Of a stretch of 64,000 bases of DNA, positions 2,956-57,419 are shown piece after piece. Numbering within the stretch: position 1 is the stretch's first letter; each line of letters opens with the position of its first letter. The notes beneath the pieces were generated by a model. It ran no database searches. It was not told where the DNA came from and was given only the letters and a program-made list of their open reading frames with translations. The position numbers and the translations under genes were made by a program. Source of the DNA: Bacteroidales bacterium. Its GTDB lineage: Bacteria; Bacteroidota; Bacteroidia; Bacteroidales; WCHB1-69. The DNA lies in NCBI GenBank assembly GCA_017615595.1, contig JAFZZT010000046.1, forward strand, positions 4,746-68,745. Direction: 5' to 3'.

Positions 2956-5025
2956 CTACTCTGCAATGACGACCGCGCCACCGCCCGGAGCCAGCTCCAA
3001 GGTCAATACGTCTGCTTGACGGATGCTGTAGGTCTTTTTTTGATAATCCACCCCTTTTCTGTGGGCATTTGGCCCGTCCGTGAAGGTCGTGACACGTCCC
3101 TCTTGGACGCCCAAAGCGGAAAGGTCAACCTTGACCTGACGCCGCGCCCAGTCATTGATGGCACCGACATACCAGACATTGCCTTTACGGCGGGCGATGA
3201 CGACATAGTGCCCGACCTCGCCATCCAAGACTCGCGTCTCATCCCAGACGGTGGGCACTTGGGCAATAAACTCCGTGCATTCAGGTTCCTGCAGGTAAGC
3301 GGTCGGGGCATCGCACAGCATCGCAAACGGCGCTTCGAAAATGACGTACTCGGCCAGCTGGCGGCAGCGCGTGCCCTGACTCATCGGCTCGCTCCATACG
3401 GGCGCATAACAGCCCTTCGAAGCATTTCGCATAGCTCCCTGGGTGAAGTCCATCGGTCCAGCCAGCATCCGGATGAAGGGGATGGTGACCTCGTATGTGA
3501 CCATGTCTGTCTCGGCGCCAGCCCACTTGCACTGCTCCAGCCCAAAGACGCCCTCGTAGTTTAGCACATTGGGATAGGTCCGGCTCAGACCAGTCGGCTT
3601 ATAGGCCCCGTGAAAGTCGATGAAGAGATGATATTTGGCCGCCATGGCTGCCATCCGCTCGTAGAAGTTGACCACAATCTGGTCGTCACGGTCCATGAAA
3701 TCGACCTTGAAGCCCTTCACGCCCATCTCGGAATAGTGCCGACACACCTTCTCCATATCCTTGTCCATGGCAGCGTAGCCCGCCCACAGGACGATGCCCA
3801 CGCCCTTGGAGTCGGCATATTTCACCAACTCCGGCAGGTCTATCTCCGGCACTACCTGAAAGAGGTCGGCCTGCTTGTTGACGGCCCAGCCCTCATCCAG
3901 AATCACATACTCTATACCCTTCTCCGCAGCGAAATCTATATAATATTTATAGGTATCGTTATTAATGCCAGCCTTGAAGTCCACGCCCCAGATGTTCCAG
4001 TTGTTCCACCAGTCCCAGGCCACCTTGCCGGGCTTGATCCAGGACAGGTCATTCACCTTGGAGGGTTCGGACAGCAGATAGACGAGGTCGTTGTCGGCCA
4101 GCTCTTTCTCTTCGGTGGCGATGGCGATCACGCGCCACGGGAAAGCCCGCGTGCCAGCGGTCTTGGCGATGTAATCCTCGCGCTCCTTCACCACATACTG
4201 CAGGTTGTTGTGTCCGCCCTGCTCCCATTTCTTAGGCAGCGGGGCAAAGACACCCTCCAAGGAATGGCCATACACATGGTGCAGGTACATGCCCGGATAG
4301 TCGTGCAGGTCAGCCTCTGTGATCACAGCCATACGGGTGTGCAATTTATCGAGATTTCTTTCCAACAGCTGCTGATATCCCTGGGCCACCAACATAGGGA
4401 GGAAGGCCAACCGATAGTCATCCATCTGTTCCAGCGGGATCTTGGTGTAGGTATTTTCAAAAGAGGTGCAGAACTGCTCCGAGAAGTCGAAGTCTTGAGC
4501 TGCCGGACGGTTTACATAGGGGACAAACGCCTCCGTCTCCCGATAGCGGCCTTCAAACGGCTCCGGCGCTCCTGGCGAAAAATTGAACCCTGCTCTCTCG
4601 TTTTTCACCACAATGGAATCCTTCATATTGGTCACAAAGCGGTATGCCACCCCGGAGTTATAGGCGCGGAAGACCACCTGATAATTTCCTTTAAAACTGA
4701 TGGTCAGTTCATTATAACTATCTAGGACCTTTGCTTTCTTGTAAAAACAAGCATCCACTATTCTATTCACAGACTTCCGCTCCGTCTTGACGACTTTCGG
4801 ATAGACACCCAAGACGGTGCCATCACCCAGTTCCAGGCCAATATTGGAGGGTATGATAAAAGGGTACTTGTCATTATCGGACGTATAGACCGAATATTCA
4901 AGCAAATCCGAGCAGTTGATTTTCACAATCAGGTTACCGCTCGGGGAGGTCAGCTTGTGCTGCTGGGCGCCAACCTGAAGGGCGCAACACAGGAAAAGGG
5001 ACAGAAATATTGTAAAATGCTTCAT
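2956..5025 (-). CDS. glycoside hydrolase family 97 (alpha-glucosidase/SusB-like)
   Basis: 689 aa with a signal peptide. Blocks GIEYVILDEGW, GVKGFKVDFMDRDDQ and HGAYKPTGLSRTYPN match GH97 as I remember it. Confidence 0.8.
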   Translation of the reverse strand: MKHFTIFLSLFLCCALQVGAQQHKLTSPSGNLIVKINCSDLLEYSVYTSDNDKYPFIIPSNIGLELGDGTVLGVYPKVVKTERKSVNRIVDACFYKKAKVLDSYNELTISFKGNYQVVFRAYNSGVAYRFVTNMKDSIVVKNERAGFNFSPGAPEPFEGRYRETEAFVPYVNRPAAQDFDFSEQFCTSFENTYTKIPLEQMDDYRLAFLPMLVAQGYQQLLERNLDKLHTRMAVITEADLHDYPGMYLHHVYGHSLEGVFAPLPKKWEQGGHNNLQYVVKEREDYIAKTAGTRAFPWRVIAIATEEKELADNDLVYLLSEPSKVNDLSWIKPGKVAWDWWNNWNIWGVDFKAGINNDTYKYYIDFAAEKGIEYVILDEGWAVNKQADLFQVVPEIDLPELVKYADSKGVGIVLWAGYAAMDKDMEKVCRHYSEMGVKGFKVDFMDRDDQIVVNFYERMAAMAAKYHLFIDFHGAYKPTGLSRTYPNVLNYEGVFGLEQCKWAGAETDMVTYEVTIPFIRMLAGPMDFTQGAMRNASKGCYAPVWSEPMSQGTRCRQLAEYVIFEAPFAMLCDAPTAYLQEPECTEFIAQVPTVWDETRVLDGEVGHYVVIARRKGNVWYVGAINDWARRQVKVDLSALGVQEGRVTTFTDGPNAHRKGVDYQKKTYSIRQADVLTLELAPGGGAVVIAE

Positions 5026-16723: not shown

Positions 16724-16729
16724 CATTTT

Positions 16730-16809
16730 TTATAAGCAAATACACTTATAAAAACAATTTATAAGTAAAAAAGCTTATAAAACACATTTATAAGCAATTA
16801 CACTTATAA
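16730..16809. promoter_or_regulatory. three phased palindromic operator-like sites, TTATAAG-N8-CTTATAA
   Basis: Perfect 7-bp inverted half-sites at 16730-16751, 16759-16780 and 16788-16809, with a start-to-start period of exactly 29 bp. Site 1 covers the expected -33 region of the SatD-like promoter. Site 3 overlaps the galE stop codon. Confidence 0.6.
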
Positions 16810-17856
16810 ATTACATCCATGAGAAGATTCGGAATCCAGATATTGCTCCCATTTCCAGGCGCTCTCCATCATATCATGCACATTATAGCGGCAGTGCCAA
16901 TGAAGGAGGGTATTGGCGCGGGAGCTGTCGCCGTAGATGGCGGGGATGTCGCCAGCGCGGCGGCCGCCGATCTCGTAGTTGAGCTTATGGCCGACAACCT
17001 CCTCGGCGGCCGCCAGCATCTCCATCACAGAGACGCCGTTGCCGCTGCCCAGGTTGAAGACCTCGCACTGTTGCTCATTGCGGTGCTCAAGCAGGTAGTC
17101 CATTGCCTTGACATGTGCGTCAGCGATGTCGGAGACATGCAGATAGTCACGAATGCAGGAGCCGTCGCGGGTGTCGTAATCGGTGCCAAAGACCTGCATA
17201 GAGGGCTGTTTGCCGGAGGCCACCCGCATGATGATGGGCACCAAGTTGTTGGGCTTGTCGGGCGAGAGTTCGCCATTCATGCCGGACACGTGCGCCCCTA
17301 CGGGGTTGAAATAGCGGAGGATGAGCGCGTTCATATCGGGGTTGGGCACCATCATATTGCGGATCATCTCCTCCCCTATCTGCTTGGTGTGGGCATACGG
17401 GCAGAAGGCCTGCCCCATGGGGGTATCCTCGCTGACAGGCAGATTCTTGACTTCGCCATATACCGAGCAGGATGAAGAGAAGATCAACGCACGGACATCA
17501 AAGCGCTGGCAGGCCTCCAAGACATTGGCCAGCGCGCCCAAGTTGTTACGATAATACATCAGCGGCTGCTCCACCGACTCGCCGACTGCTTTGTAAGCCG
17601 CAAAGTGGATGATGCCTTCAATGCCGGGATTCTCTTCAAAAACACGGAAGAAAGCCTCTTTGTCACAAATATCCACACGACAGTTCTTCACCTTGACCCC
17701 CGTGATACGCTCCACCCTGGCCATCGTTTCCGGAGTGCTTCGCACATTGTTATCCACAGAGATCACTTCATATCGGCCACTTTGTATCAGTTCGATGATG
17801 GTGTGGGAGCCAATATAGCCACAACCGCCTGTTACCATTATCTTTTTCATGTCCAT
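16804..17856 (-). CDS. galE: UDP-glucose 4-epimerase
   Basis: Has VTGGCGYIGSH, a YAHTK (YxxxK) motif and an SDR extended family layout. 350 aa. Confidence 0.9.
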   Translation of the reverse strand: MDMKKIMVTGGCGYIGSHTIIELIQSGRYEVISVDNNVRSTPETMARVERITGVKVKNCRVDICDKEAFFRVFEENPGIEGIIHFAAYKAVGESVEQPLMYYRNNLGALANVLEACQRFDVRALIFSSSCSVYGEVKNLPVSEDTPMGQAFCPYAHTKQIGEEMIRNMMVPNPDMNALILRYFNPVGAHVSGMNGELSPDKPNNLVPIIMRVASGKQPSMQVFGTDYDTRDGSCIRDYLHVSDIADAHVKAMDYLLEHRNEQQCEVFNLGSGNGVSVMEMLAAAEEVVGHKLNYEIGGRRAGDIPAIYGDSSRANTLLHWHCRYNVHDMMESAWKWEQYLDSESSHGCNL

Positions 17857-53969: not shown

Positions 53970-54410
53970 ATGGCTATCAAAATGCAAAATAAGATCGATA
54001 CAACATTCAGCGCCACATCCATGTCGGACTTGGTGTTCCTGTTGTTGATATTCTTCATGCTGACCTCCACGATGGTGTCGCCGAATGCCATCAACTTGGT
54101 GCTGCCGAAGAGCACTGCCGACAAGCAGTTGGTGACCAAGGATGTGGAAGTTTATATCAATGAAGACCTGCTGTACTTTGTCAATCCGCAAGGGTCCAAC
54201 GCGCAGCCCATCCCCTACGAGGAGCTGCTGCCCGCTTTGCAGAATGCCATTTTGCAAGACAACTCCGACAACCACTCCATTATCCTGCGCGCCGACAAGA
54301 GCGTGCCCGTGGAGAATGTGGTCGCCCTGATGGATGTACTCAACGAATTAAACGAGGGATTTCCCGAAGAACAACGTTATAAAATGGTACTGGCCACCGA
54401 AGCAAAATGA
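53970..54410 (+). CDS. exbD: ExbD/TolR biopolymer transport protein
   Basis: SMSDLVFLLLIFFMLTS anchor and a RADKSVPVENVVALMDVL block. Confidence 0.85.
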   Translation: MAIKMQNKIDTTFSATSMSDLVFLLLIFFMLTSTMVSPNAINLVLPKSTADKQLVTKDVEVYINEDLLYFVNPQGSNAQPIPYEELLPALQNAILQDNSDNHSIILRADKSVPVENVVALMDVLNELNEGFPEEQRYKMVLATEAK

Positions 54411-55108
54411 GAACGGAAATAGATCATAGAAAAGACGATATCATTCCGAGCATTGTGACGGTTGTCACGATGGCGCTCATTGTGGTGTTGCTGCTGGTGT
54501 GCAGTCTGAAATCGCTGATTCCCCCTCCCCCTCCCAAAAAGATGGTCTATGTGGAGTTGGAAGCTCCCACCACGGGAGGTGGCGGCGGTGGCGGTGCGGA
54601 TGAGCCCACCAAGACCACACACGCCAAGCCCTCGGCGCCCAACTATGCCACACAGAATGCGGTGGACGCCCCGGCGACCGCCCATGCCACCAACACGAAT
54701 CCTGACGCACAGCCCCAGCCCACCCAGACCGTGGACCAAAACGCCATGTTCAAAGGCGGTAGAGGCGGCAGTGGCAGCGGTGGCGGTGAAGGCAACGGCA
54801 TCGGCACGGGTACCGGATCTGGTCTCGGACCGGGCGAAGGCAGTGGCAGCGGTGGCGGCTTCGGCTATGGTACCGGCAGCCGTGGACTGGTGAAACAGAT
54901 CAACACCGAAGTGAATGAAGAGGGTCAGGTAGCCGTGGAAGTCCATGTGATGGCCGACGGTACGGTGAGCGAAGCCCGTGTGGTGAACAACGCCAAAGGG
55001 CGCACCACTATCACCAACACCTTCATCCAGCAACAGTGCATCCGGGAGGCCAAGAAGGCCAGATACAAACCGGGGAAGGAAGAGCTGCGGATTATCTTGT
55101 TCAAGTAG
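54407..55108 (+). CDS. tonB: TonB-family energy transducer (Gly/Pro-rich linker, TonB_C-like end)
   Basis: N-terminal anchor, PPPPPKK and GGGGGG linker, and a C-terminal EGQVAVEVHVMADGTVSEARV block. 4-nt overlap with exbD. Confidence 0.6.
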   Translation: MRTEIDHRKDDIIPSIVTVVTMALIVVLLLVCSLKSLIPPPPPKKMVYVELEAPTTGGGGGGGADEPTKTTHAKPSAPNYATQNAVDAPATAHATNTNPDAQPQPTQTVDQNAMFKGGRGGSGSGGGEGNGIGTGTGSGLGPGEGSGSGGGFGYGTGSRGLVKQINTEVNEEGQVAVEVHVMADGTVSEARVVNNAKGRTTITNTFIQQQCIREAKKARYKPGKEELRIILFK

Positions 55109-55111
55109 ATT

Positions 55112-55141
55112 ACCGCAAAGGCGCAAAGGACGCAAAGTTGC
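55112..55141. repeat. left terminal inverted repeat (30 bp)
   Basis: accgcaaaggcgcaaaggacgcaaagttgc is the exact reverse complement of 56095-56124. Confidence 0.9.
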
Positions 55142-55354
55142 GACCGCAAAGACGCGAAGGGCGCAAAGTTGCAACCGCCAAGGCGCGAAGGACGCAAAGC
55201 TGCGACCGCCAAGGCGCGAAGGACGCAAAGCTGCGACCGCCAAGGCGCGAAGGACGCAAAGCTGCGACCGCAAAGGCGCGAAGGACGCAAAGTTGCAAAC
55301 GCCAAGGCGCAAAGGACGCAAAGCTGCAACCGCAAAGACGCGAAGGGCGCAAAG
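55112..55354. repeat. tandem array, 31-bp unit x about 7.8 (consensus ACCGCMAAGGCGCGAAGGACGCAAAGYTGCR)
   Basis: Units start at 55112, 55143, 55174, 55205, 55236, 55267, 55298 and 55329. Units 3-5 are identical. Each unit holds three GC(A/G)AAG words. Confidence 0.9.
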
Positions 55355-55359
55355 AGGAA

Positions 55360-55737
55360 TCACAGGTGATTGACAATTCGTTTAATGCCATCTTTCATCA
55401 GTTCCACATTGAAGTTCAGCAACAAGCCCAATTTATATCCTCCTAACTTCAGATACGTTAAAGTTTGTGCTATATGGATGCCCGCAAGTTCTGCAACGCT
55501 CTTAACTTCTACCACAACTTTGTCCTCCACCACCAAATCCATCTTGAATGAATGTTCTATATACAAGTCGTCATATACCAATGGCAACCATTTCTCTTTC
55601 TGCACTCGTAAACCTCTTTTAAGCAATTCATAGAATAAACATTCCTGATATGGTTTTTCCAACAGCCCTGGTCCCAACGCCTTATGCACTTTCACCGCTG
55701 CATCAACAATCTCTCTTGCAATATCATTCTCTGTCAT
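55360..55737 (-). CDS. GxxExxY protein (PD-(D/E)XK nuclease-like superfamily)
   Basis: 125 aa. Reads AREIVDAAVKVHKALGPGLLEKPYQECLFYEL (GxxExxY motif: GLLEKPY), then ...MDLVVEDKVVVEVKSV...LLNF. Confidence 0.85.
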   Translation of the reverse strand: MTENDIAREIVDAAVKVHKALGPGLLEKPYQECLFYELLKRGLRVQKEKWLPLVYDDLYIEHSFKMDLVVEDKVVVEVKSVAELAGIHIAQTLTYLKLGGYKLGLLLNFNVELMKDGIKRIVNHL

Positions 55738-55753
55738 ACATTTATTTTTTTTG

Positions 55754-55761
55754 CAAAAGTA
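55754..55761 (-). promoter_or_regulatory. -7 box (TACTTTTG) of the GxxExxY gene promoter
   Basis: The rc of 55754-55761 is TACTTTTG, 17 nt upstream of the ATG at 55737, inside the AT-rich core of the cassette. Confidence 0.5.
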
Positions 55762-55847
55762 TAAAATTAATTAATATTAATATAGTTATTTAAAATTATT
55801 TTTATAACAAACCAATCTTTACGCCATTTGCGCATTTGTAGTTGCAT

Positions 55848-56124
55848 CTTTGCTCACTCTGCTCACTTTACACCCTTTGCTCTCTTTGCTCACTTTGCTT
55901 ACTTTGATCACTCTGCTCACTTTACACCCTTTGCTTACTTTGCTTACTTTGCTCACTTTGCTCACTTTACAGCCTTTGCTTACTTTGCTCTCTTTGCTCT
56001 CTTTGCTCTCTTTGCTCTCTTTGCTCTCTTTGCTTACTTTGATCACTCTGCTCACTTTGCTTCCTTTGCTTCCTTTGCTCTTCTCTTTGCAGTTGCAACT
56101 TTGCGTCCTTTGCGCCTTTGCGGT
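55848..56124. repeat. tandem array, 9-bp unit x about 31 (CTTTGCTCA / CTTTGCTCT / CTTTGCTTA / CTCTGCTCA variants)
   Basis: Continuous 9-nt periodicity, including 5 identical CTTTGCTCT units around 55985-56029. CTTTGC is the reverse complement of the GCAAAG word of the left array. Confidence 0.85.
56095..56124. repeat. right terminal inverted repeat (30 bp)
   Basis: gcaactttgcgtcctttgcgcctttgcggt is the exact reverse complement of 55112-55141. Confidence 0.9.
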
Positions 56125-56138
56125 TTAATAACAACATT

Positions 56139-57419
56139 ATGTACAACGAAATCCTAAACGACATATTCCACGCCTACCCCATGTATCACAAGGTGGGCAG
56201 CTCAGCCTACAAGGAAGGTTTGGAGAACATCGAAGCACTGCTTTCCATCATCGGCAATCCTGAGCGTAAGCTGAAAGCCATCCACATCGCCGGCACCAAC
56301 GGCAAAGGCTCCGTAGCCAACATGATGGCCTCCTACTGTCAGGAACGGGGCCTGAAGACCGGACTCTTCACTTCCCCGCATCTGGTGGATTTCCGCGAAC
56401 GCATCCGCATCAACGGACAGATGATCACTGAAGAAGAGGTAGTGGACTTTTTCCGCCAATACAAGGCACAGTTCGACCATCTGGAACCCTCCTTCTTTGA
56501 GATCACCACCGCTTTGGCCTTCCACTATTTCGTCCAACAGAAGGTGGACATCGCCATCATCGAAGTCGGGTTAGGCGGACGGCTGGATGCCACCAACGTA
56601 CTACGTCCCCTGCTCTCCATCATCACCAACATCTCCTTGGAACACACCCAGTTGTTAGGCGACACCATTGCCAAGATCGCGTATGAGAAGGCGGGCATCA
56701 TCAAAGAAGACACGCCCGTCGTCATCGGCGAGTTCCATCCCGAGAGCTTCCCAGTATTCAAAGATATCGCCGACCAGAAGAAAGCCCCCCTGTTCCTCGC
56801 CGAAGAGCATTTCGAGATTGAGGGACCGTTGTCCGACTGCACCATACGCGATACGGACGGCAACCTGCTGTACGAGCACATCCATTGTCCTTTGGAAGGC
56901 GAATACCAACGGCTGAACCTCCGCACCTTCCTGACTGCCGTTCGCGTGTTGGAAGAGCTGAGACCTTACGACAAAGACGTCGTGCGGGAAGCCATCGAGC
57001 ACCTGATCAGCAACACCGGGTTGATGGGCCGGTGGCAGGTGCTACGCCAAGCGCCACTGACCATCTGCGATGTGGGGCACAATGTGGGCGGACTGGTCCT
57101 GACGATGAAACAGCTGAGCGCCCTCCCCTGCCGCAACCTGCGCATCGTCATGGGCATGGTCAGCGACAAGGACATAGCACACATCATCCCCTTGCTGCCC
57201 CAGGACGCCGACTATTACCTCTGTCAGGCGGCCATCGAGCGCGCCATGCCCGTAGAGACCATCACGACTCTGTTTGAAGCGGCAGGACTGCGCTGCCGTG
57301 TTCACCACACCGTCATCGAAGCCTTCAAAGCCGCCGAAGCCGATGCGGCCCCTGACGACATCCTCTTCGTCGGAGGCAGCTGCTTCGTAGTCGGAGAACT
57401 ACTGGGCGCGCTTCAATAA
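56139..57419 (+). CDS. folC: bifunctional folylpolyglutamate synthase/dihydrofolate synthase
   Basis: The track start (56118) is a TTG inside the inverted repeat. I prefer the ATG at 56139 (MYNEILNDIF...). Has the HIAGTNGKGS P-loop. Confidence 0.88.
   Translation: MYNEILNDIFHAYPMYHKVGSSAYKEGLENIEALLSIIGNPERKLKAIHIAGTNGKGSVANMMASYCQERGLKTGLFTSPHLVDFRERIRINGQMITEEEVVDFFRQYKAQFDHLEPSFFEITTALAFHYFVQQKVDIAIIEVGLGGRLDATNVLRPLLSIITNISLEHTQLLGDTIAKIAYEKAGIIKEDTPVVIGEFHPESFPVFKDIADQKKAPLFLAEEHFEIEGPLSDCTIRDTDGNLLYEHIHCPLEGEYQRLNLRTFLTAVRVLEELRPYDKDVVREAIEHLISNTGLMGRWQVLRQAPLTICDVGHNVGGLVLTMKQLSALPCRNLRIVMGMVSDKDIAHIIPLLPQDADYYLCQAAIERAMPVETITTLFEAAGLRCRVHHTVIEAFKAAEADAAPDDILFVGGSCFVVGELLGALQ

Follow-up and report, generated by a model that had tools for sequence, protein, structure and literature searches.

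Two described prokaryotic systems combine a small gene with short inverted repeats in much the same way as the locus analysed here. In the first, repetitive extragenic palindromic (REP) sequences and their palindromic doublets (REPINs) are linked to REP-associated tyrosine transposases (RAYTs). The second comprises insertion sequences (IS) and their miniature inverted-repeat transposable elements (MITEs). The locus is a cassette of about 1 kb in a 64,000-nucleotide stretch of DNA (hereafter the window, to which coordinates refer unless a locus is named) from a Bacteroidales bacterium of the WCHB1-69 lineage (GenBank assembly GCA_017615595.1, contig JAFZZT010000046.1, positions 4,746 to 68,745). 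It carries a gene of the GxxExxY family between two outward-facing arms, and belongs to what appears to be a large class, so far undescribed, of nuclease genes in this arrangement. With REP/RAYT systems it shares a single small nuclease-type gene between inverted copies of a short repeat, vertical inheritance under purifying selection, and gene-less palindromic doublets elsewhere, which occur in direct, head-to-head and tail-to-tail clusters. With IS/MITE pairs it shares outward-facing termini (TTAACC...GGTTAA), sub-terminal words resembling binding sites, an empty site in a relative, and gene-less miniatures.

These systems are the closest analogues, but membership in either fails on the class of the enzyme. 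The cassette has no DDE, HUH, serine or tyrosine transposase; in place of the HUH Y1 enzyme of RAYTs (IS200/IS605-like TnpA, Y1_Tnp), its sole open reading frame (ORF) encodes the 125-residue core of a PD-(D/E)XK nuclease (PF13366). Its repeat also differs from REPs, being built of 7-mer words at a 9-bp phase whose free positions are not complementary, with no true hairpin and no GTAG/CGTC tag. In contrast to REPs, neither the window nor the 237 kb surrounding 80 further genes contains dispersed copies of the arm, and in contrast to IS there are no recent copies of the cassette, which has long been fixed at one site. The explanation that we favour, and to which we give about an even chance, is that of a fixed selfish or domesticated cassette with arms that are protein-recognised sites resembling terminal inverted repeats (TIRs), probably for its own Cas4/RecB-like nuclease. 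The arms would be double-stranded DNA recognition sites of the TIR type, most likely bound by the encoded nuclease as a dimer. Their original role would have been in moving or copying the unit, a role that they may still play elsewhere, and they would give rise to miniatures that lack the gene, as happens in REP/RAYT or IS/MITE pairs.

In the window the GxxExxY gene (55360-55737, minus strand) lies between a left arm at 55112-55152 and a right arm at 56084-56124 (CTTTGCgtcCTTTGCgcCTTTGCGGT), which pair over 41 nt at 95% complementarity. Within them, 55112-55141 is the exact reverse complement of 56095-56124 (30 nt). When up to three mismatches were allowed, this 30-mer had eight matches in the window, all of them within the locus, compared to 0.00 expected from 100 shuffles. 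Inside the arms are two tandem arrays, delimited with Tandem Repeats Finder. On the tonB side, a 31-bp unit is repeated 7.8 times with 90% matches (55112-55354), just downstream of the GxxExxY stop codon, at the expected position of the 3' untranslated region (UTR). On the folC side, the 9-bp unit CTTTGCTCA, or CTTTGC(T/C)(C/T)A, is repeated 25.9 times with 80% matches (55848-56080). An AT-rich core containing the GxxExxY promoter region (55738-55847) separates the gene from this second array, and ends in a short degenerate stretch of words (55820-55847) that runs into it. The promoter box TACTTTTG (55754-55761, minus strand), 16 nt upstream of the GxxExxY ATG, is a Bacteroidota-type -7 box (TAnnTTTG, the consensus of Bacteroides sigma-A promoters). 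It is the sole TAnnTTTG between 55000 and 56200, and has the same position in the orthologous loci L003 and L008. A scan for sigma-70 promoters and intrinsic terminators, which is ill-suited to Bacteroidota, found nothing. The inverted repeat, both arrays, the 125-residue reading frame and the internal promoter had all been pointed out in a first-pass annotation made from the sequence without database searches, and the present analysis agrees with it on each. The same holds for its statement that the unit fills the gap between its two neighbours; the margins found here are 3 nt and 14 nt.

That annotation had also asked whether other GxxExxY genes carry the same arms, and they do: the arms occur family-wide and are not unique to this locus. 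A scan with an alignment of relatives as query, taking one genome per species, gave loci from 80 species, mostly Bacteroidota, with others from Acidobacteriota, Planctomycetota, Chloroflexota and further phyla. Pairs of the word R-C-A-R-A-G occur in the 100 bp upstream of the gene at 6.7 per kb (in sense) and in the 100 bp downstream at 6.1 per kb (in antisense), compared to 0-0.15 per kb at more than 1 kb from the gene, which corresponds to an approximately 50-fold enrichment within 100 bp. No arm cluster was found more than 800 bp from the gene in the 237 kb examined around the GxxExxY genes of the 80 species. At both gene ends the arm has the consensus TTAACC-RCAAAG-nnC-RCAAAG, with the TTAACC end outward; it is a cluster of two to four C-R-C-A-R-A-G words at 9-bp phase, ending in (TTA)ACC. 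The same words are found in Bacteroidota, Acidobacteriota, Planctomycetota and Chloroflexota. The variants GCAAAG, ACAAAG, ACAGAG, GCAGAG and GCAAGG are mixed within single loci, and for that reason a co-evolution test of word type (CAAAG, CAGAG, CAAGG) against protein lineage was uninformative. In L232-L241 (e.g. L232 at 1299-2984) the arm-flanked gene lies between genes for an N6_N4 methyltransferase and a ResIII helicase, accompanied by a further PF13366 paralogue of divergent sequence and by a pair of small ORFs with no known match. A very large, uncharacterised family of nucleases thus appears to be associated, in a way not hitherto described, with phased inverted DNA words and miniature derivatives.

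Comparison of partner arms shows what has been conserved in them. The spacer base adjoining the word is C in 58 of 58 comparisons, so the word is in fact the 7-mer C-R-C-A-R-A-G. At the two free spacer positions, identity between gene-flanking partner arms was 0.29 and 0.32, versus 0.25 and 0.26 for shuffled partners. In 49 alignments of gene-flanking arms, G:U-type mismatches numbered 88 versus 93 of the A:C type, and transversion-type mismatches dominated. The absence of covariation, together with the absence of a G:U bias, points to selection on the phased inverted words and not on base-pairing, and the conservation of the words favours recognition by a protein on DNA. The perfect 30-nt identity in the window takes in the free positions as well, and is best read as recent local copying between the arms.

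These observations bear directly on an RNA-level reading, raised in the first-pass annotation, in which the unit acts like the intervening sequences (IVS) of 23S rRNA: the arms would pair in an exbBD-tonB-folC read-through transcript and the duplex would be cut (e.g. by RNase III), so that the cassette is excised or insulated and a folC mRNA results. There is some likeness to an IVS, in that inverted repeats within a transcription unit enclose a small ORF from a patchily distributed multi-copy family. Folding of the plus-strand RNA of 55105-56100, a check proposed in that annotation, did pair the left array with the right array (minimum free energy -259 kcal/mol, z = -4.05); a read-through transcript of the window could therefore pair both arrays, and a local RNA-level effect in the window's lineage is possible. 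Moreover, the cassette contains no TAnnTTTG box for folC, a gene that in the ancestral state shared a transcript with tonB. Across the family, 46 of 63 cassettes point the same way as both neighbours, many without space for a separate promoter, whereas only 4 of the 63 run against both; the antisense orientation with its own promoter in the window is a minority arrangement. As a conserved function, however, pairing is contradicted by the lack of covariation at the free positions and of any excess of G:U over A:C, by the conservation across phyla of the word sequence itself, which pairing alone would not require, and by the position of the upstream arm in the window's lineage, outside the gene's own transcript and upstream of its promoter. 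No relevant Rfam family matched the window region (E ≤ 10) or 20 related loci (gathering score). The cassette further differs from 23S rRNA IVS in lying outside an rRNA gene, in having arms that show no compensatory covariation and in its ORF family, IVS ORFs encoding four-helix-bundle proteins. We consider an IVS-like device improbable.

If the words are recognised by a protein, that protein could belong to the host. In this serious alternative, which we hold to be unlikely all the same, the words are binding sites of a conserved nucleoid, replication or sigma-type protein, and regulate or insulate the gene and its neighbours, the job of the nuclease being unrelated. Conservation of the words as words at a fixed 9-bp phase would suit such a ligand equally well, as would the many solo arms that lie beside unrelated genes with no recurrent neighbour family among the matches listed. 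In addition, the antisense word has a TTTG core that is similar to the core of the -33/-7 promoter consensus of Bacteroidota and always points outward. A terminus of the ACAAAG type, TTAACCACA (e.g. L124 at 533-541 and L145 at 4983-4991), is identical at 8 of 9 positions, possibly by coincidence, to the DnaA-box consensus TTATCCACA. Against a host ligand stand the approximately 50-fold enrichment next to GxxExxY genes, with none elsewhere in the 237 kb of the same genomes, the recurrence of the same words in phyla with different promoter types, and the defined outward-facing TTAACC termini, which are typical of the ends of elements.

By exact matches of its protein sequences, the window falls among Bacteroidales metagenome assemblies of the ruminant-gut type. 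Comparison with related genomes shows first that the cassette was inserted into an ancestral exbB-exbD-tonB-folC operon. Its left neighbour in the window is a tonB-like gene (54407-55108, plus strand), the last of an exbB-exbD-tonB string, with its stop codon 3 nt from the cassette. The TonB assignment is weak (TonB_C, E = 0.003, under the Pfam cut-off), and is backed by the exbB-exbD-X synteny. The right neighbour is folC (56139-57419, plus strand), with its ATG at 56139, 14 nt after the end of the right arm. In a more distant relative (L222/L223), which keeps the order ftsK-exbB-exbD-tonB-folC and has FolC and TonB proteins 68% and 62% identical to those of the window, only 17 nt separate the stop codon of tonB from the ATG of folC, and arms are absent. 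This empty site implies that the operon is the ancestral state and the cassette an insertion, as had been supposed in the first-pass annotation. The comparison of tonB-folC junctions proposed there succeeded in this respect; the target duplication that it also looked for could not be shown. The empty site is seen only in this distant relative, no direct repeat flanks the cassette, and the TTAA at the cassette end could be either part of the terminus or a target duplication.

Secondly, the insertion is old. In 27 related assemblies the cassette occupies the same site between the tonB-like gene and folC, antisense to both neighbours. The GxxExxY orthologues at that site are 87, 79, 76, 74 and 72% identical to the window protein, and their divergence follows that of TonB and FolC. 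The ratio of nonsynonymous to synonymous divergence (dN/dS) is 0.04-0.10, at dS values from 0.7 up to saturation, and the terminal words are kept at both ends in orthologous loci despite the saturated synonymous divergence. In one of the 27 assemblies (L220) the gene is truncated and the arms are retained. The co-divergence and low dN/dS imply long vertical residence under purifying selection and not recent mobility. From these comparisons of orthologous loci, the unit has passed by vertical descent through a clade of gut Bacteroidales at the rank of a family, with strong purifying selection acting on both the protein and the words. No near-identical copies were found elsewhere, identical proteins always occur in one genomic context, and the 64-kb window holds the cassette only once; on this evidence it has long stayed fixed at a single site. 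The mobility suggested earlier for the unit is, if meant as recent, not borne out by the single site and orientation in 27 assemblies, the co-divergence and the purifying selection.

The same set of assemblies speaks to the other possibility raised from the sequence of the window, an invertible, phase-variable segment in which recombination between the arms flips the core with promoter and gene. Perfect 30-bp inverted repeats do bracket a promoter-bearing core. The gene is, however, antisense to tonB and folC in the window and in all 27 related assemblies (the opposite orientation in 0 of 27), no recombinase gene is among the called neighbours within several kb, and the arms are symmetric, so that a flip would not alter which flank receives what. 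Inversion is therefore extremely improbable. With regard to base composition, the GC content at third codon positions (GC3) is 0.33-0.44 in the GxxExxY gene versus 0.53-0.75 in its neighbours, in every orthologous locus (the window, L003, L008, L013, L221 and L228); its composition has not drifted to that of host genes, though synonymous sites are saturated between lineages.

The arrays are far less stable than the terminal words. Over 3.5 kb, the window and two close strains (L001 and L002) differ by one single-nucleotide polymorphism, one 31-bp unit and two 9-bp units, the 31-bp array being one unit shorter in both strains and the 9-bp array two units shorter in L002. Orthologous loci have the same words in very different copy numbers: one arm per side in L013, three to nine arms with AT-rich spacers in L003 and L008, a 9-bp array on the other side in L221, and complete hairpin units in L226-L229. 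In the P0021 clade, strains with an identical protein hold one, two or three copies of a diverged hairpin unit of about 88 bp, and in two strains of that clade a segmental duplication has placed an extra TonB_C-like ORF between two units. In L224 and L230 (2968-3816) this extra ORF, of 281 residues and with a weak TonB_C match, lies between two hairpin units beside the cassette; duplication of a segment at the arms has here produced a new tonB-like gene. Copy-number variation and segmental duplication together identify the arms as hotspots of local duplication. The 31-bp unit consists of one arm (ACC with the words CGCAAAG, CGCGAAG and CGCAAAG), and the 9-bp array repeats the antisense form of the arm word, with the 9-bp phase that the word naturally has; as judged from these sequences, both window arrays are lineage-specific amplifications of the conserved terminal arm. 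We propose that slippage or break repair at the arms generated them, the 31-bp array from the arm and the 9-bp array from the single word, and that they are unstable and not separate functional devices.

The variability of the arrays might suggest that arms and arrays are altogether functionless, the decaying relics of an old insertion with ordinary replication slippage added. Array copy number does vary freely among strains, and the words of the 9-bp array have no C/G flank of the kind that is otherwise invariant. Applied to the arrays alone, such a reading is compatible with the explanation that we favour. For the arms it is quite improbable, as the terminal words are kept at both ends in lineages with saturated synonymous sites and recur around GxxExxY genes in 80 species.

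Some further observations on repeats were made in passing. In L218, where folC is not beside tonB, about 100 bp of GCTAAAGGC-like repeats with a 9-bp period (2830-2950) lie 40-130 nt upstream of folC and are followed by a proper TACTTTTG box; these repeats may be a relic of a word array. For many close homologues the only available contigs are some 0.5-2 kb long, which fits the breaking of short-read assemblies by arms and arrays. The window arrays produce long spurious ORFs, for instance one of 328 residues at 54377-55363 on the minus strand. An AT-rich 29/30-bp tandem repeat (TTTATAAGCAAATACACTTATAAAAACACA, 2.8 copies) in the intergenic gap at 16729-16810 is unrelated in sequence to the arms.

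The GxxExxY protein itself matches the profiles PF13366 (PDDEXK_3; E = 4e-40, 137 bits versus a cut-off of 22) and TIGR04256 (GxxExxY; E = 1.6e-41, 141 bits versus a cut-off of 35). Its motifs are G24LLE27KPY30 (the G24xxE27xxY30 signature), D67, E77-V-K79 and Q91xxxY95; among 30 relatives none of these varies, whether G24LLE27KPY30, the catalytic D, E and K or QxxxY. The order E27...D67...E77xK79...Q91xxxY95 is the arrangement of RecB, Cas4 and lambda exonuclease. A structural model (AlphaFold, AF2; mean predicted local distance difference test score 86.5) has an alpha-alpha-beta-beta-beta-alpha-beta core, with the Cas4 proteins SSO0001 and Pcal_0546 and alkaline/lambda exonucleases as its nearest neighbours (template modelling score about 0.5). 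PADLOC gave a weak match to a Cas4 hidden Markov model and nothing else, and searches of the Protein Data Bank by sequence and of PHROGs gave no match. On this evidence, the protein is probably a minimal Cas4/RecB-like PD-(D/E)XK nuclease core. The likeness holds at the protein level only; unlike Cas4, the protein is half the size and has no Fe-S cysteine cluster and no CRISPR context, and similarity in sequence to solved structures is undetectable. The PF13366/GxxExxY family comprises 18,392 clusters at 50% identity, and many cluster representatives (P0241-P0250 among others) are proteins of 250-295 residues with two tandem-fused GxxExxY domains, an indication that the form with one domain may function as a dimer. 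In collections of mobile DNA the family had no INPHARED match, one IMG/VR locus and four plasmids; phage carriage as the vector was rejected, since the family is essentially absent from phage collections.

A nuclease with an adjacent repeat array also calls to mind type III toxin-antitoxin systems, with the repeats transcribed into a repeat RNA that is cut by the nuclease and neutralises it. The 31-nt array lies directly downstream of the nuclease ORF, in its expected 3' UTR, some PD-(D/E)XK folds are RNases, and splicing endonucleases and CdiA-CT are among the weak fold matches of the model. The arms, however, are inverted and often present in a single copy per side (as in L013 and L053), where a direct-repeat array upstream of the toxin would be expected; solo elements are dispersed without the gene, and PADLOC detected nothing beyond the weak Cas4 match. 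A system of this kind is very improbable here.

Arms also occur on their own. When metagenome contigs were scanned for exact matches to TTAACCRCAAAGNNNRCAAAG, at least 120 contigs were found, and among the matches listed only about 5% of the arms have a GxxExxY coding sequence nearby, no other gene family recurs beside the solo arms, 80 of 137 arms are accompanied by a partner in inverted orientation no more than 250 nt away, and 18 of 120 contigs hold two to four separate arm clusters. At least 42 distinct elements have the structure TTAACC-words-loop-words'-GGTTAA, with lengths of 57-260 bp, and tandem duplication of element plus flank is found among solo elements too. The gene-less arms appear to be miniature derivatives of the cassette, and the pattern appears lineage-restricted, because genomes chosen for the gene have no such copies in the flanks sampled. 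Two other origins were weighed. Homing of the gene into pre-existing dispersed hairpins is disfavoured, as the gene-chosen genomes have no arms away from the gene, and integron attC sites were rejected for the hairpin units, the usual arrangement being half-arms around a gene; to our knowledge, phased repeated words are not a feature of attC sites.

Taken further, these data would allow the GxxExxY cassettes to form a class of their own among the selfish or mobile elements of prokaryotes. The minimal nuclease, the only protein of such an element, would recognise the phased words in TTAACC-ended arms and move or copy the unit and its miniatures by a break-and-repair process unlike known transposase chemistry, and the units would have spread over at least four phyla and then been fixed or domesticated like RAYTs. 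We put this forward tentatively, as a possibility that may well prove wrong. Several observations weigh against the cassette being an element with arms that serve its own nuclease. The words could be bound by a protein of the host, and we know of no transposase that consists of the 125-residue nuclease core alone. About one-fifth to one-half of the loci, depending on the pattern used, have no detectable arms, and the divergent PF13366 paralogue in L232-L241 has none either; the arms may be specific to one GxxExxY subfamily. Solo arms are absent from the flanks in gene-chosen genomes, which thus provide no example of an autonomous/non-autonomous relation within any one genome. No target-site duplication, insertion polymorphism between close strains or multi-copy identical cassettes were seen, and transposition is consequently deduced from architecture only. 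Finally, the copy-number differences within the window's own strain could in part be artefacts of short-read assembly.

The GxxExxY family is present in many phyla with no assigned function. The searchable literature on GxxExxY, PDDEXK_3 and PF13366 holds only classification tables and a handful of passing mentions, with no biochemical data; searches for the arm sequences returned unrelated primers only, and those combining PDDEXK with TIR, or REPIN/RAYT with Bacteroidetes, nothing relevant. For genome analysis, the arms and their hypervariable arrays matter because they break short-read assemblies and create spurious ORFs. For the host, the interruption of the exbBD-tonB-folC operon makes one ask by what route an essential folate gene can be expressed when 1 kb of antisense insert lies in front of it; since there is no folC box on its strand within the cassette, folC transcription must either cross the insert or start inside it. 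For the family, the conserved phased word in inverted arms is the first candidate for a DNA target or substrate. If the nuclease does act on the arms, the cassettes would represent either a second, mechanistically independent case of a REP/RAYT-like system or a new kind of mobile element.

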